Of a stretch of DNA of 64,000 bases, positions 3,841-64,000 are shown piece after piece. A model generated the notes under the pieces. The model was given only the letters and a program-made list of their open reading frames with translations. It had not been told where the DNA came from and ran no database searches. A program made the position numbers and the translations under genes. The DNA lies in assembly GCA_013178015.1 (NCBI GenBank), contig JABLXR010000005.1:38532-102531 (forward strand). Direction: 5' to 3'. Source of the DNA: Anaerolineae bacterium (GTDB lineage Bacteria > Chloroflexota > Anaerolineae > DRVO01). How positions within the stretch are numbered: the first letter of the stretch is position 1; each line of letters opens with the position of its first letter.

Positions 3841-3867
3841 CCGGTAACCTCCTTGCCTCTGCAGAAT

Positions 3868-3958
3868 GATGCGTGATACGTGATGTGTGATGCGTGACAC
3901 GTGGGCTGTATCGGCGAGAGTGGATGTCACGTATCACGTATCACGCATCACGCATCAC
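3868..3958. repeat. Imperfect palindrome built from GTGATAC/GTGATGC direct word repeats
   Basis: Arms GATGCGTGATACGTGATGTGTGATGCGTGACACGTG and GATGTCACGTATCACGTATCACGCATCACGCATCAC lie between the MocR stop and the ECF-S start. It contains the TCACGC core shared with other elements. Confidence 0.6.
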
Positions 3959-17645: not shown

Positions 17646-17749
17646 GGCCACAGAGAAGCGGGTGACGTTCCTGAGTACGGGCATGACTCAATCCACTCAA
17701 AGGGGAGTTCCCTTGTTCCATCCTCTGTGTCTCGGTGTCTCTGTGGGCC
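17646..17749. repeat. Imperfect hairpin element of CACAGAGA-word type
   Basis: Arms GGGCCACAGAGAAG and CCTCTGTGTCTCGGTGTCTCTGTGGGCC sit in the divergent region between the GH5-like gene and the purH-like gene. The words match the arms flanking the GxxExxY gene. Confidence 0.55.
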
Positions 17750-31011: not shown

Positions 31012-32013
31012 TCAGCCTCTCTGTGCCTCTGTGCCTCTGTGGCTGGTCTCGACGGCCAGCGTTCGGCGTCGCTTGCGCAGCCACAGGAGCCCGCCGGGGA
31101 GGCTGCTGGTGTAGATGATGAGTTGCATGAGCAGCGAGACGGCGAGCGCTCCCGCGGGCGAGACTACCCCGCCCAGGCTGGAGTAGAGCAGATCGTAGGC
31201 CCCCTGATTGACCCCCAGCCCCCCCAGAGAGGGCACGATCAGAGGAGCGAAGGCGAGCATGGGGTTGAAGAGAAAGACGTATCGCAACGGTATCCCAGCC
31301 CCCACCGCCGTGGCCACCACCCAGTTGACCAGGTTGGAGGTGACGATGACCGCCAGGCCGATGCCGTAGGCCCGGGCCAGGGCGCCGGGATGATCGCGAT
31401 AGGTCTGCAGCGCCTCGGACAGGCGACCGTAGACCGGCTCCAGCCGGGATAGCAGAGGAAGCCGAAAGAGCTGCCCGATGAGCAGCCTGAGCCGGCGGCT
31501 GAAGAGCATCGCCAGGAAGCCGAGCGCTCCAGCGCAGGCAAGCCAGACCACTCCGGCCAGGGGCATCAGGTCGCTGCGACCCCAGCCAAACACGGCCACC
31601 GCCGACATGGCGGCGGCGCTGGTGATGAAGGCGGTGAGGCCCACCAGCCGGTCCACCAGGACGGATATGGCAGCGTCCTCGACGCGACTCAGGTGTCGGG
31701 CCAGGTCATACCCTCGCACCAGGTCGCCCCCTACGTTGGTGGGGAGGAAGTTGCCGAAGAAGAGCCCGGTGAAGGTGAAGGCCAGCAGGTCCGGGTAGGG
31801 CAAGGTCGCGCCCTGGGCCCGCAGGAGCAGGCTCCACTTGGCGGTGTTGAGGGCGATGGCGCCAAAGTACACCGCCAGGGCGGCGACCAGCAGAGGCACC
31901 GAGGCCCCGCCGAGGGTCGCGGCGACGGCATCCAGGTCCACCCGCCAGAGCAAGTAGGCGATCAGCGCCAGGCTAACCGCGATCTTCACCAGGTCTACGG
32001 CCCTCAGCCGCAT
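31012..32013 (-). CDS. Lysylphosphatidylglycerol-synthase-TM-region / flippase-like membrane protein (UPF0104)
   Basis: Start MRLRAVDLVKIAVSLALIAYLLWRVD, then about 8 TM helices. LPG_synthase_TM-like motif GNFLPTNVGGDLVRG. Confidence 0.7.
   Translation of the reverse strand: MRLRAVDLVKIAVSLALIAYLLWRVDLDAVAATLGGASVPLLVAALAVYFGAIALNTAKWSLLLRAQGATLPYPDLLAFTFTGLFFGNFLPTNVGGDLVRGYDLARHLSRVEDAAISVLVDRLVGLTAFITSAAAMSAVAVFGWGRSDLMPLAGVVWLACAGALGFLAMLFSRRLRLLIGQLFRLPLLSRLEPVYGRLSEALQTYRDHPGALARAYGIGLAVIVTSNLVNWVVATAVGAGIPLRYVFLFNPMLAFAPLIVPSLGGLGVNQGAYDLLYSSLGGVVSPAGALAVSLLMQLIIYTSSLPGGLLWLRKRRRTLAVETSHRGTEAQRG
31016..31046. repeat. Inverted-repeat arm CCTCTCTGTGCCTCTGTGCCTCTGTGGCTGG (right arm)
   Basis: Reverse complement of 30612-30638. 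It encodes the last codons (SHRGTEAQRG) of the flippase-like gene. Confidence 0.7.
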
Positions 32014-39457: not shown

Positions 39458-40987
39458 GTGTTCCGGCGACATTCAGGAGCAAGCCTATCGGTGAGCCTAC
39501 GGCGGCTGCGCGCCCTTGATTCGGGAGCCGGCAACTCCATCGGCAGCGAGAGGGAGAGCGGCCGGCGACGATGGGGGACCATTGGGCGCGTCCTGCTCCT
39601 TCTGGCCATCCTTTCAATCGTCCTGGTCAGCGCCAACCTGTACGTGGGACGCCTCGCGGCCCTGCCCGCTCCCTTCATTGACGACCTGGCGAACGCCGAG
39701 AACATCATGAGGTTGCTGGTGATCTCGCCTCACCCGGACGACGAGGTGATCGCGGCCGGCGGGCTGATGCAGCAGGTACTCCAGCGAGGGGGCGAGGTGC
39801 GCGTGGTCATCGTCACCAGCGGCGATGGCTCCCTGACCGGAACCATGGTCGAGTTCCGCCGCCCTCCCCGGTCAACCGACTACATTCAGTCCGGGCTCAA
39901 CCGGCAGCAGGAATCGCTCCGCGCCTTGGCTACCCTGGGTGTGGCGCCCGGTATGGTGGAGTTCCTCGGCTACCCGGACCGGGGCATTCAGGCTCTCTGG
40001 TGGAACTACTGGGAGGACACTGACCCTTACCGCTCGCCCTTCACCCGACTGGCTCACAGCCCCTATCCCCTCACCTACAATCCGTCCTCGGTCTACTCGG
40101 GGCAGTCTCTGCTGGCCGACCTGCGGACCATCCTGAGTCAGTTCCAACCGGACACGGTTGTAGCGCCCCATTTTGAGGATAGCCACCCGGACCATTGGGC
40201 TACGGGCGCGTTTGCCGCCCTCGCCCTGGCCATGGAGCGCCCGGATCCGATGCCCCGGCTGCTTCTGTACCTGGTTCATCGGGGAGACTTCCCCACGCCC
40301 AGGGGCTACCTCCCCTTCGCTCCGCTCTTGCCTCCCCTCAGGCTGGTTAACGACGGAGTCTACTGGCAGAAGCTGACCTTGACCGACGAGCTGGTCAGGG
40401 TCAAGGGCGAGGCCATGGAACAGCACCGCAGCCAGCTGCCCCTGCTGGGCGCGTTCCTTCGCTCCTTCGTGCGCCAGAACGAGCTATTCTGCGAACTGAA
40501 CTACGCCGGCGCTCTGATGCTGGTGGAAGACCAGCCGGTGACACCAGTGGTCACCGACTGGGTCTTGGCGGACGAGGCCGAACTGCGGCCGGTTCTGTGG
40601 GACTCGGTGGGGGACACTCTCACCCAGGAGTTAGGCCCGGGCACCGATTTCGTCGCCCTCTACGTGGCCACCACGGCCGAGGAGGTATGGATAGCAGCCG
40701 AGCTCAGAGGGGGCTCCAGCCCCCTGGTCGAGTACCGGGCTTTCGTGCGCGCTGCCGATGGCGAGAACGCGTCCCGCGCTCGCGTGCTCTACCCCGTCCG
40801 GCTCATGCCTCGGCCCCGAGATCAGGCCCGCGGTCGTTTCCTGCTGGCCCGGTTCCGGCTGGACGAGCTGAGTAACCCGCACACGGTAGTGGTCAGCTTC
40901 GAGGCTGCCTATCCGCGCGGGCGCGTCGTTGACCGCATCGGCTGGATAGCGGTGAGCCTGGAGGACCAGGCTGTCCCTGCCTTCTGA
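39458..40987 (+). CDS. PIG-L/LmbE-family N-acetylglucosaminyl deacetylase, membrane-anchored, with an extended C-terminal region
   Basis: N-terminal TM (VLLLLAILSIVLVSANL) and a PIG-L motif (LLVISPHPDDEVIAAGG). A second His motif (HFEDSHPDHWA). About 250 extra C-terminal residues of unknown function. Confidence 0.75.
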   Translation: MFRRHSGASLSVSLRRLRALDSGAGNSIGSERESGRRRWGTIGRVLLLLAILSIVLVSANLYVGRLAALPAPFIDDLANAENIMRLLVISPHPDDEVIAAGGLMQQVLQRGGEVRVVIVTSGDGSLTGTMVEFRRPPRSTDYIQSGLNRQQESLRALATLGVAPGMVEFLGYPDRGIQALWWNYWEDTDPYRSPFTRLAHSPYPLTYNPSSVYSGQSLLADLRTILSQFQPDTVVAPHFEDSHPDHWATGAFAALALAMERPDPMPRLLLYLVHRGDFPTPRGYLPFAPLLPPLRLVNDGVYWQKLTLTDELVRVKGEAMEQHRSQLPLLGAFLRSFVRQNELFCELNYAGALMLVEDQPVTPVVTDWVLADEAELRPVLWDSVGDTLTQELGPGTDFVALYVATTAEEVWIAAELRGGSSPLVEYRAFVRAADGENASRARVLYPVRLMPRPRDQARGRFLLARFRLDELSNPHTVVVSFEAAYPRGRVVDRIGWIAVSLEDQAVPAF

Positions 40988-41018: not shown

Positions 41019-41804
41019 GTGCGTCCCTATCGCCCCAGCGACCGGGAGGCTGTGCGCTGCCTTTACGCCGACACCGCTTTCTTCGGGGAACCGGTAGAGG
41101 CTTACTTCGACGACCGCAAGCTCTTCGCCGACCTGGGTGTGAGCCTCTACCTGGATCACTACCCCGACTACGCCTTCGTGGCCAGGCAGGTTACAGGGGA
41201 TAGGTTACAGGTGACAGGGGACAGGTTACAGGGAGTGGCCCACGGGACCGAGAGAGGCCCGTCCTCACCCTGTCCCCTATCCCCTGTCCCCTGTAACCTA
41301 TCCCCTGTCACCTGTAACCTATCCGGGTACATTGTGGGGAGCCCGCACGGGGATGCCGACGTGCATCGGCACCTGATGGCGCACCTTCCTGCTATCGTGG
41401 GAAGGCTGGTGCGGGGACGCTACCGCCTGGGCCGCAAGACCATGCTCTACTACCTGGACAACGCCCTGGCCTGGCTGCGAGGGCAGCTGCTGGAGATCCG
41501 CGACCCCGCCTATCCCGCCAACCTGCACATCAACGTCGCCTCGTCTCACCGAGGGCAGGGCCTGGGATGGGAACTGTTGTCCGCTTACCTGGAGCACCTG
41601 CAACGCTGCGGGGTGCCGGGGGTGCACGCGGTCACCACGGATCACAGTCGAGGTGCCGTCAGGCTCTTCCAGAAGGCTGGCTTTCGGCTCTTGGAAGAGA
41701 AGAGCACCTCGGTGTGGCGCCGGCACCTGGGCCGGCAGGTGAGGCTGCTTGGGTTCGGCCTGCGGCTGGATCAGGACGGGCCACCGCCGAGGCGGCCATC
41801 CTAG
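41019..41804 (+). CDS. GNAT-family N-acetyltransferase carrying an in-frame 45-codon repeat insertion
   Basis: GNAT motifs (HINVASSHRGQGLGWELL; FQKAGF). The insertion QVTGDRLQVTGDRLQ...PVTCNLSG sits between beta strands. Confidence 0.7.
   Translation: MRPYRPSDREAVRCLYADTAFFGEPVEAYFDDRKLFADLGVSLYLDHYPDYAFVARQVTGDRLQVTGDRLQGVAHGTERGPSSPCPLSPVPCNLSPVTCNLSGYIVGSPHGDADVHRHLMAHLPAIVGRLVRGRYRLGRKTMLYYLDNALAWLRGQLLEIRDPAYPANLHINVASSHRGQGLGWELLSAYLEHLQRCGVPGVHAVTTDHSRGAVRLFQKAGFRLLEEKSTSVWRRHLGRQVRLLGFGLRLDQDGPPPRRPS
41189..41325. repeat. Intragenic imperfect palindromic element of GTTACAGG/GACAGGG-word type
   Basis: Left arm GGTTACAGGGGATAGGTTACAGGTGACAGGGGACAGGTTACAGGGAG. Right arm CCCTGTCCCCTATCCCCTGTCCCCTGTAACCTATCCCCTGTCACCTGTAACC. 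The GNAT reading frame is preserved through it. Confidence 0.6.
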
Positions 41805-42044
41805 GGTTCGACGGCCACCGATGACAGTTGCCGTCTGCGTCAGGGCCACCGTCAGCTCCAGACCCGAGCTCTGATCGGCACCCTCACTGGGCATCGAGTT
41901 TACGTAATCTTTACGAGAGATTTACGGTAGAGGGACTACCCATCTCCCCCACGGTTGCTCCACACTTATGTCGAGGCGCCCCAGGGTCCGGTCAGCCCAC
42001 CAACTTCAGTGACCGGATCCGACCCCAGGGGCGCGGGGGGAACA

Positions 42045-44417
42045 GTGTTCGCCAACCGAAGACCGTGCCGGGGTATTGTCCCGACGGCATTGGCTGTCGT
42101 TCTGCTGCTAAGCCTGGTGCTGCAGAGCATGGCATCGGCCCAGTCTCCGTCCGGGCCCATGGCCTTTGGGTCTCGTCTCGACGCCGACGTCGTCGCCATG
42201 TTGCCTTACCAGATCGAGGGCGACATGTGGGGGGTCATGTACCACGGGGACCTAAGTAAGGTGGAGAGGCCACTCTCGATCGTGCCCGCCTACACTCGCA
42301 TGTTCATGACTCCCACCCTGGATGGGGTAGAGGAGGCCCTGTCCCGGCTCAGCATCGAGGTGGCCTACCTGGGGTACGACCTGGAGCGCTGGGATCAGAC
42401 TCCCATCTGGGAGCAGGAGAACCCGGTGGAAGCGGTGAGGCGTATGCGGGACATCGCTCGCGCTCACGGGCTGCAGTTCGTGCTGGGGCCGTCGCGCTAC
42501 TTCAACGTGAACTTCGCCGCGGAAATGGCGCCCTACGTGGACATCTACATCCCCCAGGCCAAGGCCTACCAGGCCAACCTGAGCCTGGACGAGTATCGCG
42601 ACACCCTACGCAGCCTATTCACCACCATCAAGCAGGCCAATCCCAACGTGAGCATCTGGCTGGACGTGGCCCCCAACCCCAAGGGCGTGCCCAAGACGGC
42701 GCAGGAGATGATGGACTGCGTCAATGCCGTGCGCGACCTCATTGATGGCGTCTGGGTCACCCCCACGCAGGACGATGGTACCGTCATGCGGGAGTTTCTG
42801 AGGCTGCTGGGGCGCACCGATGCCCCAGAGTCCACGCCTACGAACACGCCCACGCGTCAGCTCACGGCGACCTCGACTCCGACGCACCAACCAACAGCTA
42901 CTCCCACCAGTACTCCTACGCGTCAGCCCACGGCCACTCCCACCGCCACCACGCGGCCCGCCTACACTCCTACCGCCACCTATGCGCCCACATCCATGCC
43001 CACTGCGACGCCGTACGTCCCCCCGACCAGCGCGGTGACTCCTATCCCGACGTCCACGCCCACCGCCTCCGCGACGCCGGCCACTCCTGAACCCACCTCC
43101 ACGGCTACTGCCACCCCGCTGCCCCCGCCGGCCTCGGCGCCGGAGGTCCTGCCCGACCTCAGAGGGGGGAGAGTTAGGGTCAAGCCCCTATCGCTGGAGC
43201 CGGAGGGCTGGAACTGCGACGTGAGCGTATCCATCAGGAACCAGATCCCGGCCGCGGCTCAGGACTTCGTGGCCGCCGCGAGCATAGCGGCCGAGGACCG
43301 GCCGGACACCGTCCTGTTCCAAGCCCTCTGGAGCGTGGACTACCTCGGGTCTCGAGAGACGATCGTCCTCTCCCAGTCGGTGGTGATCCCGGCGGGCCAG
43401 TACGTCATCTGGCTGGACCCCAACATCGGCGGCCCCAACGGTGAACCCATCGCCGAGGCCGACACGAGCAACAACCGGAGCGGCCCCTACTCTTTCACTC
43501 TGACAGGGACCTATCGCGGCAATGGGAACGGTTCCTCGGCTCAGCAGAAGGCCGAGTCCGGCGCTACCGAACCCGCTGGCCCGCCACCGCTCAGCCCCAG
43601 TCCGGCGCCGTCCACACCTCTTCCCGCGGCCGGGACAGAGGCGGCGCCTTCTGCTCCATCGTCGGAGGCGGGAGCGGCACCTGACGCCACCCCGACCACG
43701 CCACCGGCTACCGTGGCGCCCGAGGTGCCGGTGGAGGCCACGGCCACCGCGCCGACGCCGCCCCCAGCAGTGCCGACCCCAACCCTGGAGGCTACCAAGC
43801 CGGTGGCTCCCCCTGCCGAGCCGACGAGACCCCCGGCCACGAAGGAAAGACCCACCGCTCCGGCCACGGTCGCGCCCATTGTGGCCCCCACGGCCACACC
43901 CGTCCCCACTGCTACCGCGGTGCCCCTGCCCGAGCCGACTGACACACCCATACCTGAGCCCACCGCCGAGCCGACGGCCACGCCGGTGCCGGAGGCCACC
44001 ACAGCCTCATACTACGTGGACGCCAGAAGCGGGAACGACGGGAATTCGGGCGCCAGCCCCGACCAGCCGTGGCGTAGTTTGGCCCGGTTGGCAGCTGTCC
44101 AGTTGCAGCCGGGCGACGTGGTCCACTTCGCTCGCGGCTCGCGCTGGGACGAGGGGCTGGTGATAGACGAGGCTGGCTCGCCCGAGCGGCCCATCGTCTT
44201 CAGGGCCTACGGCGAGGGCAGGCCACCGGTGTTCCGCAGCCCGGGCCCACCCTCGTTCGCCCCCTCTATCGAGGTCCGTGCTCCCTGGGTTACTTTAGAG
44301 GGCCTCCTGGCCCGGGAAGGTCCCCACAACGCGGGCATCAGCATCGCCAGTGGGTTGGAGGGCGTCTCGCTGGTGGACTGCCAGGTGGTAGGAGGGCCAG
44401 AGGACGGAGCCGACTGA
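42045..44417 (+). CDS. Large secreted protein with Pro/Thr-rich linkers, a CARDB-like domain and a C-terminal right-handed beta-helix-like domain
   Basis: GTG start and signal peptide ([30 protein letters not shown]). Two long PT/PTAT linker tracts. C-terminal [16 protein letters not shown]...GISIAS. Confidence 0.65.
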
Positions 44418-47430: not shown

Positions 47431-47635
47431 GGGGATTCACCGCCGAGATCGCCGAGACCGCAGAGAGAAGCGGAGGAAATGAGATCCGATGTCGTCGCCG
47501 CGGTCGCAATGAGCTACGGGGAAGAGGTGGGTCGGACGGCTGCTCCCGGCCCTGACGCGCCTCAGCAGTGCTTCAGTCGCCTGCCATGTCGTTCTTAGCT
47601 CTCTGACTTCTCGACGACCTCTGCGGTCAACCCCC
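47431..47635. repeat. MITE-like element with terminal inverted repeats GGGGATTCACCGCCGAGA...CCTCTGCGGTCAACCCC
   Basis: The left end GGGATTCACYGC-GAGA-CGC-GAGACCGCAGAGAGAAG is shared with 48439-48629 and 60082-60244. Purine-rich left half, pyrimidine-rich right half. Confidence 0.65.
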
Positions 47636-48438: not shown

Positions 48439-48629
48439 GGGACTCACCGCAAAGATCGCAGAGACCGCAGAGGATTGGCAAAGGCGAAGGGAAGAGGGAT
48501 GCAAGTCGCCGGGGGGATGGGAGGGCAGTGGCTCAGGTGCCCTTGCGCTGGCGGGCTGCGCTCTCTGATGCTCCCTGTACTCTCTCTGCGTCTTCTCTGC
48601 GTTCTCGGCCATCTCTGCGGTGATATCCC
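48439..48629. repeat. MITE-like element, same family (GGGACTCACCGCAAAGATCGCAGAGACCGCAGAGG...CTCTGCGGTGATATCCC)
   Basis: It exactly fills the spacer between the isomerase stop (48433) and the hemW ATG (48636). Confidence 0.65.
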
Positions 48630-51724: not shown

Positions 51725-51795
51725 CCTCACGCAAAGACGCCAAGGCGCAAAGGAGTACGGCAAGGGATCTTGGCCTCCTTGCGCCTTTGCGTGAG
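51725..51795. repeat. Imperfect hairpin element of CGCAAAG-word type
   Basis: CCTCACGCAAAGACGCCAAGGCGCAAAGGAG...CTCCTTGCGCCTTTGCGTGAG sits between the dnaA stop and the stop of the convergent ATC-hydrolase-like gene. Its words match 556-619. Confidence 0.6.
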
Positions 51796-52525: not shown

Positions 52526-53131
52526 CTAGTCCTCCCGACGCGCTGCCAGCAGCTCTCGTAGGCTCTCGGCGGTGAGGCTGGCGCCGGTCAGGTCCAGCCC
52601 ACTGAGGTCGAGCCCCTGCAGGTCTGCTCCCTCTTCGAGTACGGCCCCGGTGAGGTCGGCGTTCTCCAGGTTGCTCCCTTGCAGGTTGACTCTGGGCAAC
52701 ACCGCTCCCGTCAGGTCGGCCTGGCGCAGGGTGGCTCCCTGCAGGTTGGCCTCCCGCAGGACGGCCCCGGTGAGGTCGGCCCGGCGGAGGTCGGCGTTCT
52801 GCAGGTTGGCCCGTCGCAGGACGGCTCCGGTGAGGTCGCTGCCGCGCAGGTCGGCACCCTGCAGGTTGGCGTCCTGCAGGTCGGCTCCCGTGAGGTCGGC
52901 GGCCTCCAGCCTGGCGCCCCGGAGTCGGGTGCCCCTCAGGTTGGCTCCGGCAGCGTTGTCCAGGACAGGCCGGGCGCGGGGCGGCCTGGGCGGGGGCTCC
53001 AGCCTACCCCGTCGCGAAGAGGGAGCAGCCGGTTGCCGGTGGGCGAGGGCCGCGAGGAGGCCGTCGGCCTCCTCGGCAGTGATGCGGCCTTCCTGCACCA
53101 TTCTCAGTATCCGCATTCGCTCTTCGCTCAT
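52526..53131 (-). CDS. SHOCT-like N-terminal domain + pentapeptide-repeat protein
   Basis: N-terminal MSEERMRILRMVQEGRITAEEADGLLAAL, then about 20 A(D/N)LxG pentapeptide repeats. Confidence 0.75.
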   Translation of the reverse strand: MSEERMRILRMVQEGRITAEEADGLLAALAHRQPAAPSSRRGRLEPPPRPPRARPVLDNAAGANLRGTRLRGARLEAADLTGADLQDANLQGADLRGSDLTGAVLRRANLQNADLRRADLTGAVLREANLQGATLRQADLTGAVLPRVNLQGSNLENADLTGAVLEEGADLQGLDLSGLDLTGASLTAESLRELLAARRED

Positions 53132-53140
53132 GCCTGCCTC

Positions 53141-54196
53141 TCAGTTAGCTTCGCGCCGCTGGCGCAGCGCGCGCACCTCCGCGGCGCTCAGGCGGGCGCC
53201 GGTCAGGTCGAGGTCCCGGAGATCCAGGCCGCTCAGATCGGCACCTTCTTCGAACACCGTGCCCATCAGAGACGAGTCCCTCAGGTCTGTCCCCTGGAGG
53301 TTGGCCTTGGGCAATACCGCCCCCATCAGGTCGGCATCGCGGAGGACCGCGCCCTGCAGATTGGCGCCGTCTAGGACTGCGCCCATCAGGTTGGCGTCCC
53401 GTAGGTCGGCGCCCTCCAGGTTGGCGTCCCGCAGAATGGCTCCCTTGAGATCGGCATCGCGCAGATCGGCGTCGTGCAGGTTGGCGCCGGTGAGGTTGGC
53501 TCCCTTGAGGTCGGCACCCTCGAGCCTCGCCCCCTCTAGGTTGGTGCCCTCCAACACTGCCCCGGCGAGGTTGCCGAATGAGGCCCCGTGCCTGTCCGCC
53601 CTCTCTGCCCTGGCGGCGTCCCTCTCCAGGCGCGCGGTCATCCGCTGCAGCTCGGCGTTCAGCCGGCGCACGGCCGCCTCGATCTGGGGCTGCACCTCTT
53701 TCATCGTCTGCTCGGTGGCGGCCCGCACCGAATCCACCAGCCGCTCCGCCTGAGCCGCTATCTGCTGCCTCTGGGTGGAGTCAACCATCTCATTGATCAT
53801 CCGGCTCACTTCCTGGGCCAGCCTGTTCGCGTGCCCCTCGAACTCCTTCCAGTACTCGGAGTGGAAGCCGGCTCGCACAGCCTCGCCTACGCTCTCGCCC
53901 AGGTCCGCCAACTGCTCCTCCACCTCGCGCCAGGCCTCCTGGGTGCGCTTCCAGTCCTGACGCTGGCGCTCGGGCTCGGGCGCGCCGGGCATCTTCTCGG
54001 CGACGGGCTTTCCCTCGGCGGTCGGCGGCTCCGACGTCTCAGCTACTGGTTCCGGCGAAGGCTCGGGCGGCCGGGGCGGTTCCTCTACCACCGGCGGCTC
54101 GCCCAGGGCCTCCAGGAGGTCGTTGGCCTCCTCGGGGGTAAGCCTACCCTCCTGGAGCATTCTCAGTATCCGCAGCCGTTCCTCGCTCATGGCCAT
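53141..54196 (-). CDS. SHOCT-like N-terminal domain + coiled-coil + pentapeptide-repeat protein, paralog of 52526-53131
   Basis: Start MAMSEERLRILRMLQEGRLTPEEANDLLEAL, with GGGAGGG upstream. A Pro/Glu linker, a charged helical middle, then pentapeptide repeats. Confidence 0.75.
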   Translation of the reverse strand: MAMSEERLRILRMLQEGRLTPEEANDLLEALGEPPVVEEPPRPPEPSPEPVAETSEPPTAEGKPVAEKMPGAPEPERQRQDWKRTQEAWREVEEQLADLGESVGEAVRAGFHSEYWKEFEGHANRLAQEVSRMINEMVDSTQRQQIAAQAERLVDSVRAATEQTMKEVQPQIEAAVRRLNAELQRMTARLERDAARAERADRHGASFGNLAGAVLEGTNLEGARLEGADLKGANLTGANLHDADLRDADLKGAILRDANLEGADLRDANLMGAVLDGANLQGAVLRDADLMGAVLPKANLQGTDLRDSSLMGTVFEEGADLSGLDLRDLDLTGARLSAAEVRALRQRREAN

Positions 54197-60081: not shown

Positions 60082-60244
60082 GGGATTCACTGCAGAGACC
60101 GCTGAGACCGCAGAGAGAAGATGAAGAGGCTGGGCGAAGGCCATCAGGTTCTCAGGCTAGCCACATTCCCGCCGACCGTCTTTCCCTGTCCCCTCCCTTC
60201 TGAGCGCTTTCTCCGCGGTCTCTGCGTTCTTTGCGGTGAGACCC
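60082..60244. repeat. MITE-like element, same family (GGGATTCACTGCAGAGACCGCTGAGACCGCAGAGAGAAG...CTTTGCGGTGAGACCC)
   Basis: It exactly fills the spacer between the GH127 start (60019) and the stop of the second URO-D-like gene (60246). Confidence 0.65.
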
Positions 60245-61310: not shown

Positions 61311-61456
61311 GGGACGCAGACGCGGAGAGGGGGAGACACGGAGACACGGAGAGGGGGAGAGGGGGAGATGGTGAGACGCGGAGAGAGGGAGACTGCCCCC
61401 TGGTCGTAGCGTCTCGGTATCTCCCCCTCTCCGCGTCTCCCCCTCTCCCCCTCCCC
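61311..61456. repeat. Imperfect hairpin element of GGAGA-word type
   Basis: Left arm GACGCGGAGAGGGGGAGACACGGAGACACGGAGAGGGGGAGAGGG..., right arm its pyrimidine-rich complement. It shares the word CACGGAGACAC with the arms flanking the GxxExxY gene. Confidence 0.65.
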
Positions 61457-63167: not shown

Positions 63168-63241
63168 AAACGTGAGACGTGAGGAGTGACAGGCGCCCAG
63201 CGGCGCCTGGAGGTTCACGGGTCACTTGTCACGCGTCACGC
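63168..63241. repeat. Imperfect hairpin element of ACGTGAG/GTCACGC-word type
   Basis: ACGTGAGACGTGAGGAGTGACAGGCGCC...GGCGCCTGGAGGTTCACGGGTCACTTGTCACGCGTCACGC sits between the dhaK start and the aldolase stop. Confidence 0.55.
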
Positions 63242-64000
63242 ATCATCCTCTCCGCCTGCTCCGGCGTCGCTCCCCGATGCACCACCTCTGCCAGCGCCTG
63301 CACCATCCGCCGTGGGTTCTGGGACTGCCACACGTTGCGGCCGAAGGTCACGCCGGCCCCGCCGGCCGCGACCACGTTGTAGGCCATGGTGAGGGCCTCC
63401 AGAGGAGTGTCGCACCGGGCGCCGCCGGCGGCCACCACCAGCGCCGGGGCGGCTGCCTCTACCACCTGGGCGAAGCTCTCCGCCGACCCGGTGTAGAAAG
63501 TCTTGATCACGTCCACTCCCAGCTCCATGGCCAGCCGAGAGGCGTACGCCACCCGGGCGGCGGTGTAGCGCTCCTCGGGCGGGACCAGGCTGCCGTTGGG
63601 GTAGGCGTGCACTACCACCGGCATCCCCACCGCCTCGGCCTCGCGCACCAGCGCCGCCAGGCCTTCCAGCAGCTGGGGCTGCTCCGGGCTGCCCACCGTC
63701 AGGGCCATGGCGATGGCGTCGGCTCCCAGCCGGAGGGCGTCCTCCATGTGGCTCACCCACACGTCCCGTTCGGGATGGTAGGGGGACAGGGTGGAGGACT
63801 TAAGGATGAGAGCGATGCGCCCGGCATAGGGCTCGAAGCAGCGCTCGGCCGTGCCCTTCATCAGCAGTAGAGCGTCCGGCCCTCCCCCCGCCACCTGCGC
63901 TATGGCCGCCCGGATGTCCTCCAGCCCGGGCAGGACCCCATAGCTAGGCGCGTGGTCCAGCGCTACGGTGAACACGCGCCCGGAGTCTTGGTTGAGCAGC
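63229..64000 (-). CDS. Class I (DhnA/LacD-type) aldolase; the N-terminus lies beyond the window end
   Basis: DhnA-family pattern (VALDHAP...LLLMKG...IKTFYTGS...GVTFGRNVWQ). The ORF stays open to nt 64000. Confidence 0.7.
   Translation of the reverse strand, partial: LLNQDSGRVFTVALDHAPSYGVLPGLEDIRAAIAQVAGGGPDALLLMKGTAERCFEPYAGRIALILKSSTLSPYHPERDVWVSHMEDALRLGADAIAMALTVGSPEQPQLLEGLAALVREAEAVGMPVVVHAYPNGSLVPPEERYTAARVAYASRLAMELGVDVIKTFYTGSAESFAQVVEAAAPALVVAAGGARCDTPLEALTMAYNVVAAGGAGVTFGRNVWQSQNPRRMVQALAEVVHRGATPEQAERMMRDA

Follow-up and report, generated by a model that had tools for sequence, protein, structure and literature searches.

In a 64,000-nt stretch of a metagenome-assembled genome (MAG) of an Anaerolineae bacterium (contig JABLXR010000005.1, positions 38,532 to 102,531; hereafter the window), the gene for a GNAT-family N-acetyltransferase contains a 138-nt palindrome built from 7-nt repeat units. 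Because the segment is absent from 55 orthologues, its DNA is palindromic and its repeat words recur elsewhere in the MAG and in other genomes, we regard it as an inserted repeat and not as a conserved domain, and it is very likely an imported element rather than native sequence. The explanation that we favor overall, and consider probable, is that a heptamer-built palindromic repeat was imported into a turn of the GNAT protein and is carried there in frame.

A heptamer palindrome within a GNAT gene

The gene, the element and the native codons on either side of it are as follows (window coordinates).

41019..41804, + strand: GNAT-family N-acetyltransferase, host gene (261 aa from GTG at 41019; Pfam Acetyltransf_1)
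41175..41186, + strand: native codons F53 V54 A55 R56, end of strand β2, directly 5' of the element (alignments, codon view, model strand E52-56)
41187..41324, + strand: palindromic short-tandem-repeat element, very likely inserted (138 nt, codons Q57-S102; absent from 55/55 orthologues)
41187..41236, + strand: G-rich left arm (C + AGGTTAC AGGGGAT AGGTTAC AGGTGAC AGGGGAC AGGTTAC AGGGAGT; gene frame reads QVTGDRLQVTGDRLQGV)
41237..41267, + strand: central part, hairpin tip, partly self-complementary (CGGGACC GAGAGA GGCCCG), encoding roughly AHGTERGPSS
41268..41324, + strand: C-rich right arm (CCCTGTC CCCTATC CCCTGTC CCCTGTA ACCTATC CCCTGTC ACCTGTA ACCTATC C; gene frame reads PCPLSPVPCNLSPVTCNLS)
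41325..41339, + strand: native codons G103 Y104 I105 V106 G107, start of strand β3, directly 3' of the element (alignments; model strand E101-108)

The element (CAGGTTACAGGGGATAGGTTACAGGTGACAGGGGACAGGTTACAGGGAGTGG CCCACGGGACCGAGAGAGGCCCGTCCTCA CCCTGTCCCCTATCCCCTGTCCCCTGTAACCTATCCCCTGTCACCTGTAACCTATCC) consists of AGGTTAC/AGGTGAC/AGGGGAY heptamers arranged as an imperfect palindrome, each arm being about 50 nt long. The left arm consists of seven heptamers in the order given above, while the right arm, read on the opposite strand from the outside to the inside, runs AGGTTAC, AGGTGAC, AGGGGAT, AGGTTAC, AGGGGAC, AGGGGAT, AGGGGAC, AGGGTGA. With several imperfect 7-nt units placed head to tail, the element is a heptameric tandem-repeat array of the STRR-like kind. 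An inverted-repeat search paired 41187-41238 with 41263-41314 (52 nt, 87% complementary), and a second register paired 41198-41233 with 41289-41324 (36 nt, 97% complementary). In both arms, Tandem Repeats Finder (TRF) detected a period of 7 (6.6 and 6.9 copies) and a 21-nt super-period, with 91-92% matches. The word GTTACAGG was present five times in 64 kb, each time within the element (0.68 expected; five or more copies in 0 of 100 shuffles), and three successive AGGNNAY units gave 10 matches, again all within the element, where 0.02 were expected; GACAGGGGA by itself was not significant in 64 kb (3 observed, 1.3 expected). As RNA, the element folded into one long hairpin of -99.5 kcal/mol (z = -8.3), and none of 200 shuffles was equally stable. 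The inverted-repeat search, TRF, the shuffles and the fold all agree with the initial annotation, which had placed here a palindrome with a word-repeat left arm and a complementary right arm. Its location at 41189-41325 also holds, whereas its size (137 nt, 45 codons) has to be corrected to the 46 codons within the bounds listed above. No Rfam model matched the element at gathering score, with hits to generic miRNA-hairpin models only (best 46 bits vs 80), and no T-run was found 3' of the stem, so the element is not an intrinsic terminator. Over 321 bases across the element, the DNA is identical in a Logan assembly of run SRR6186653, which makes an assembler artefact unlikely.

The open reading frame (ORF) of the gene is intact across the element, as had been annotated. 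In an alignment of 55 orthologues (33-68% identity), the segment falls exactly in the FVA...GY strand-turn-strand, in keeping with the earlier placement between FVAR and GYIVG. The normal turn, previously put at 2-3 residues, is longer: FVA and GY are separated by 7 residues in 54 of the orthologues (consensus DDAGKVV-like), by 11 in one and by 47 in the window protein. R56 is the only one of these 47 that is not repeat-coded, and the 46 codons of the element amount to a net gain of 40 residues. The initial annotation had named, as the finding that would speak against it, a 45-residue domain conserved in orthologues and devoid of palindromy; the repeat segment was present in 0 of 55, and the DNA is palindromic. 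Orthologue DNA at the insertion site contained no heptamer units, and codon comparison with two orthologues cannot fix the boundaries of the element.

The host protein is otherwise a typical member of its family. PF00583 (Acetyltransf_1) matched residues 170-222 with 35.1 bits (cut-off 20.7; E = 1.8e-08), PF13508 and PF13673 were likewise above cut-off, and the GNAT profile matches span residues 165-231. The NCBI model of the gene, NPV06880.1, begins at GTG 41052 (250 aa) and is annotated as 'GNAT family N-acetyltransferase [Anaerolineae bacterium]' (100% match). The acetyl-CoA pyrophosphate-binding motif R/Q-x-x-G-x-G/A after strand β4 is present as R178-G179-Q180-G181-L182-G183 (RGQGLG). Across 56 sequences, R178, G179 and G181 were near-invariant and G183 was invariant, as were G103 and G107 just downstream of the element, and at each of the 15 invariant and 34 near-invariant positions the window protein agrees with the family.

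An AlphaFold2 prediction on the alignment had a mean pLDDT (predicted local distance difference test) of 84.5. The GNAT core was modeled with confidence (>90), and residues 61-97 (<50) appeared as a disordered insert between the adjacent strands E52-56 and E101-108. Foldseek matched the predicted core to solved GNAT structures (4bmh, E = 6.7e-10; also 3zj0, 5wph, and 1yvo), the best matches being bacterial and human O-GlcNAcase HAT-like domains (4bmh, 3zj0). In the GNAT fold, the β2-β3 turn is solvent exposed and lies outside the acetyl-CoA site; going by the model, the insert would occupy this surface turn, away from that site. The insert had no match in Pfam.

Related arrays in the same MAG and in other phyla

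We surveyed the AGGTTAC family at 185 loci (numbered within L001-L199) plus the window. Two further arrays with the same 21-nt triple, known from protein sequence, are found in the same MAG (NPV06719 and NPV06775; the window gene being NPV06880), and the ordered triple AGGTTAC-AGGTGAC-AGGGGAT recurs at these two loci as well as in unrelated genomes. NPV06719.1 (hereafter P0057), a protein of 418 aa encoded on another contig, contains ...DRLQVTGDRLQGIGDRVQGIGDG...PVTCNLSPVTCNL..., internal and in frame. Its homologues have 340-373 aa and are about 26-35 residues shorter at the repeat site, and the DNA of the closest one is free of heptamers there. In NPV06775.1, the C-terminus runs into GDRLQVTGNRLQVTGDRLQVTGDRL.

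A pattern scan of one genome per species returned at least 120 loci with the same heptamer words; those listed came from Cyanobacteria, Chloroflexota, Gemmatimonadota, Acidobacteriota, Planctomycetota, Bacteroidota, candidate-phyla bacteria, and others. The words form a non-random set, since AGGTTAC has preferred partners: among the 120 loci listed, it was most often accompanied by AGGGGAC in 36/120, by AGGTGAC in 24/120 and by AGGGAAC in 21/120. A stricter 20-mer matched 40 metagenome contigs, and a degenerate pattern matched 28 viral contigs (IMG/VR, L172-L199), where several arrays form hairpins. Searching with the insert peptide alone gave six weak matches, mainly spurious small ORFs over arrays; the plasmid collection gave short array matches only, and a literature search under the raw heptamer strings retrieved nothing relevant. 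Gene callers are misled by such arrays (P0058-P0063; L122 6001-6279), with spurious small ORFs, wrong starts and C-terminal extensions as the outcome; a case in point is a 92-aa 'protein' whose start lies within a hairpin, upstream of a pilin-like gene.

Other in-frame intragenic copies, each backed by Pfam domains on both sides of the site or across it, were found in an RlmKL methyltransferase linker, a ResB/CcsA fusion, a Wzy_C protein, a glucosaminidase-LysM linker and a Mu-type portal. The portal gene (L068 2056-2160; MAG 'bacterium isolate SJ870') carries in frame a full AGGTTAC-family hairpin of -76 kcal/mol, and its product has 41 residues where homologous portals have 2, that is, about 39 added. 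The hairpin copies in the GNAT, P0057 and portal genes share one reading frame, which gives QVTG... from the G-rich arm and ...PVTCNL from the C-rich arm.

When G-rich and C-rich arrays were paired within 150 nt, the G-rich array came first in 50 cases and second in 1, and this sole reverse case is the junction between two tandem hairpins. Since a palindrome looks alike on either strand, the arm order is a real invariant. Hairpin copies measure 46-207 nt (median 94). Among 48 of them, target-site duplications numbered about what chance would give (none in 31, 1 nt in 13, 2 nt in 3, and 3 nt in 1), with none at the GNAT copy, and conserved termini were sought in the same 48 copies and not found.

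In metagenomes, most copies are located between the stop codon of one gene and the start that follows. Arrays frequently start at, or overlap, the TAG or TAA stop of the gene upstream, and the complementary arm ends just 5' of the next start (L130, L133, L135, L140, L155, L156, L165, L166, and others); such stop-to-start elements fill the spacer exactly. At L133 (488-558), the direct flanks form a perfect 12-bp inverted repeat (gaggtcttcagt / actgaagacctc), and the palindrome thus reaches past the arrays.

Variation in unit number was shown for the family at loci other than the GNAT copy. An intergenic copy seen in two samples (L140 and L141, 99.6% identity) has a single 7-nt unit more in one sample than in the other, confined to one arm, and two orthologous pairs of loci (L110/L111 and L041/L069; 79-93% flank identity) have an array at the same site with different units. 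Such gain and loss of units would explain why the two GNAT arms use the same words in shifted order.

Origin of the element and fate of the enzyme

We propose that the hairpin, one of a class of short-tandem-repeat hairpins with a wide distribution among bacteria, was copied in from another array, by a process without target-site duplication. Candidate processes would be transposition of a single-strand hairpin, or template switching at some short homology, for example CAGG. The event would also have removed about six codons of the native turn, and later slippage of units would have put the two arms out of step. Translation would add a loop of about 40 residues, predicted to be disordered, to an otherwise normal GNAT fold.

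The element probably persists because its length is a multiple of three, because it is read in its only stop-free frame, and because it lies on a surface hairpin turn that is far in sequence from the acetyl-CoA motif. One of its three forward frames is open, that of the gene, and the others run into TGA (GGTGACA), TAG (GATAGG) or TAA (CTGTAAC). When the unit order was shuffled, the gene frame stayed open 35% of the time; with one length in three divisible by three, about 1 in 8-9 random insertions would therefore keep the frame. Special selection is not needed to account for this, and it is plausible that the loop is tolerated by chance, as the survival of a rare harmless event at a permissive turn.

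Several points weigh against the proposed import into a working gene. An empty site in a close relative was not found in the databases searched, where the best orthologue has 59% BLASTP identity (68% over aligned columns), which is why both the insertion and its precise limits have to be inferred. Of the 7 residues of the native turn, R56 alone can be accounted for, so that a deletion of about six codons must be assumed. A conserved core or loop was sought among the copies and none was found, their centers being unrelated; together with the missing target-site duplications, this leaves mobility as a unit conjectural. In mRNA, a stem of about 50 bp at -99.5 kcal/mol may invite RNase III cleavage or slow the ribosomes, with poor expression as the result. 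Finally, the argument for function draws on structure prediction and intact residues, and a recent inactivating insertion would presumably leave those residues equally intact.

The strongest rival is that the insertion silenced the gene while leaving its frame intact, either through cleavage of the hairpin mRNA or a block of translation, or because the 46-residue loop stops folding or substrate binding. The gene would then be a young pseudogene. The strength of the hairpin inside a coding region speaks for this, as does the otherwise intergenic location of the class (5/5 in the window and mostly so elsewhere), which suggests that intragenic copies are usually selected against. On the other hand, the gene has neither stop nor frameshift and keeps every conserved residue, the predicted core is undisturbed with the insert on the tip of a strand-turn-strand, and genomes other than this one retain in-frame copies in genes that they probably need (portal, RlmKL, ResB/CcsA). 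The arms have also already fallen to 87% complementarity, and the insertion may therefore not be very recent. Silencing is a tentative alternative that we hold to be the less likely outcome. Between the two fates left open by the initial annotation, the predicted structure and the intact conserved residues lead us to lean toward tolerance of the loop, and we narrowly favor an enzyme that would still be functional.

It is unlikely that two inverted arrays of 57 and 60 nt were instead added around a retained native turn (FVA-HGTERGPS-GY), each with a short direct repeat. Such repeats do flank the arrays, with GTGGCC at 41178 and 41235 (57 nt apart) and TCC at 41262 and 41322 (60 nt apart), the lengths of both putative insertions are divisible by three, and a deletion need not be assumed. 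In addition, the center (GTG GCC CAC GGG ACC GAG AGA GGC CCG TCC) resembles GTG GCC ... GGC CCG GTA GGC TAC of the closest relative, P0002, and the center of P0057 (QGIGD...FP) lines up with QGVGD...LP of its closest homologue. Yet the 55-orthologue profile ranks HGTERGPS only 74 of 98 alternative reconstructions, the center is itself within the palindrome, and the likeness to a turn was spotted post hoc. In the Mu-type portal, moreover, the 15-residue center has no counterpart among homologues, which have 2 residues there.

Growth of the arrays in place, with slippage and the formation of palindromes out of native sequence (for instance the CAGG at the left edge), appears more doubtful still. 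Slippage is known to expand heptameric repeats (PMC4692102, PMC4679880), unit gain and loss is seen in this family, and the native flank GCC AGG CAG G has the unit core CAGG at its end. However, the same ordered triple is found at two more MAG loci and in unrelated genomes, orthologue DNA has no such units at the site, and independent local births would hardly yield a 50:1 orientation.

A selected function, whether as a lineage-specific functional loop or as a phase-variation switch by one-unit (7 nt) slips, is very improbable. A one-unit change would shift the frame and was seen between the intergenic L140 and L141 copies, and the C-rich arm encodes Cys every 7 residues. But slippage should be infrequent in units this heterogeneous, the insert is predicted to be disordered, lacks a Pfam match and is conserved in no orthologue, and any copy of the DNA repeat that is read in the GNAT frame gives this peptide.

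An assembly or library artefact, for example a chimeric palindrome from sequencing, is the least probable explanation: palindromes and repeats do trouble assemblers, and both assemblies may come from the same reads, but contigs of 111 kb and 13 kb from two assemblies agree in sequence, the frame is kept, and analogous in-frame copies occur in unrelated data sets.

Known repeat systems and other repeats of the window

[quoted passage not shown] Like the GNAT element, RPEs, Coxiella QMITE1, Anabaena MITEs, pneumococcal BOX/RUP/SPRITE and intragenic ERIC are repeat elements fused in frame inside genes. What is shared is a hairpin repeat of about 100-150 bp that is present at several loci and in frame in unrelated genes, where the added peptide sits at a position that the fold allows (PMC10969869, PMC3184786). 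The GNAT element is correspondingly a 138-nt hairpin, none of the 55 orthologues carries it, and the MAG has further copies, in frame in NPV06719.1 and C-terminal in NPV06775.1 (protein evidence). The resemblance to RPEs concerns behavior and not family membership, and no sequence relation is expected. Unlike RPEs, the GNAT element has arms made up of 7-nt unit arrays in place of a unique consensus, there is no shared core, and the words cross phyla. AGGTTAC copies are also mostly intergenic, whereas nearly half of the R. conorii RPEs lie in ORFs.

Bacterial heptameric tandem repeats are over-represented, mostly intergenic, sometimes inverted and shared by distant phyla, by a vehicle that is unknown (PMC4692102, PMC4679880). 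The cyanobacterial STRR-type repeats, GGGAATC/GGGGAYT of Xanthomonas and Nostoc, and TAACTGA of Beggiatoaceae, Cyanobacteria and Bacteroidetes form the same short, imperfect arrays of 7-nt units. Like the AGGTTAC family, they are mainly intergenic and near start or stop codons, vary in unit number between relatives, include some inverted pairs and have a patchy spread across phyla (PMC4692102, PMC4679880). They differ in that the present words are AGGTTAC/AGGTGAC/AGGGGAY, that hairpin pairing is common and strictly oriented, and that the GNAT copy, the exception in a mainly intergenic family, is translated inside an enzyme gene. By analogy, then, the GNAT element behaves like an RPE and is built like the heptamer arrays.

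Other classes fit less well. REPINs, inverted REP pairs mobilized by RAYT, share with the AGGTTAC hairpins two inverted arms with a short spacer, a hairpin of about 100 nt, a usually extragenic location, multiple copies and the lack of a target-site duplication (PMC3116915, PMC3733652). The arm ends of the GNAT element have neither the GTAG nor the CGTC tag that defines a REP (PMC3733652), and AGGTTAC arms are built from tandem arrays whose length varies (46-207 nt overall). As in MITEs, the copies are short, non-coding and several in number, and the arms of the GNAT element (87-97% complementary) serve as terminal inverted repeats. In contrast to MITEs, a target-site duplication of constant length is missing (absent from 31 of 48 copies and at chance level in the others), and the unrelated centers leave no conserved internal sequence.

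Single-strand transposition of the IS200/IS605 type leaves no target duplication. These elements move as single-strand DNA with hairpins and insert beside a short target (PMC5934647, PMC5027513), which for IS608 is TTAC (PMC5934647, PMC5027513), a tetranucleotide present in every AGGTTAC unit. The resemblance, one tetranucleotide and the absence of duplications, is a lead only. As a speculative idea that we think unlikely, AGGTTAC-family hairpins might not be passive microsatellites and might instead be made by an undescribed dedicated insertion or repeat-adding process. Two candidates would be an HUH/Y1-type single-strand transposition that uses the TTAC of each unit, or templated addition of G-rich heptamers to both 3' ends of a break, which are then joined. 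Either would explain the 50:1 arm order, the missing target duplications, the unrelated centers, and the occurrence of the words across phyla and phages, and would occasionally graft loops of about 40 residues onto proteins such as GNAT.

That a repeat is carried in frame inside a gene is already a known phenomenon, and the GNAT case is a real but modest new example. With the import that we favor, heptamer hairpins, usually regarded as clutter between genes, can end up in the interior of an enzyme gene of a Chloroflexota bacterium and stay in frame, which would give proteins one more route to disordered loops, as with RPEs. The case also carries a warning for annotation, as the NCBI product name is that of an ordinary GNAT, and arrays of this kind give rise to spurious small ORF calls. 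If the strict orientation, the lack of target duplications and the spread across phyla and phage contigs hold, they would point to an uncharacterized mechanism that makes or moves repeats, and this would matter more than the GNAT case.

The largest inverted repeats of the window all have arms of short tandem units, and the GNAT copy is the only intragenic one. The others, and the upstream neighbor of the host gene, are listed here.

3867-3958: repeat hairpin of GTGATGC 7-mers, intergenic
51726-51795: repeat hairpin of CGCAAAGG 8-mers, intergenic
60092-60237: repeat hairpin of GCAGAGACC 9-mers, intergenic
61318-61456: repeat hairpin of GGAGACRC/GGAGAGGG 8-mers, intergenic
63168-63250: repeat hairpin of ACGTGAG 7-mers, intergenic
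39458..40987, + strand: PIG-L family deacetylase, upstream neighbor (Pfam PIG-L E = 1.1e-25)

In hairpins of other unit families, the G-rich arm comes first as a trend only (about 10-12 vs 2-4), and in the window hairpin at 51726-51795 the left arm has more C than G by direct count. The rule that the G-rich arm comes first in all repeat hairpins was therefore dropped. Single unpaired arrays of CCGCAGAGA-type 9-mers and CTCTGTGY 8-mers were seen in intergenic spacers at 47439-47470, 48446-48475, 17723-17745 and 31019-31041; rotating the CCGCAGAGA-type 9-mer gives the unit of the 60092-60237 hairpin.

The order PIG-L then GNAT is found again in L121, the Logan copy of the window, and at the orthologue locus L124, and orthology is supported by this neighbor being kept beside one orthologue. 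A GT4 glycosyltransferase gene lies upstream of the PIG-L gene in L121. Together with the O-GlcNAcase HAT-like structural matches and the PIG-L neighbor, it hints at a role of the GNAT protein in sugar modification.

Two further repetitive stretches of the window were seen. An 820-aa Pro/Thr/Ala-rich protein (41955-44417) is encoded with 36-nt tandem repeats at 42876-42944 and 43930-44000; it had no Pfam match in the scan, and its Logan gene model had a weak Pel9A-like β-helix match. The segment at 52704-53524 has a long 15-nt periodicity (TRF periods 15, 30, and 60 nt) and resembles pentapeptide-repeat coding sequence.

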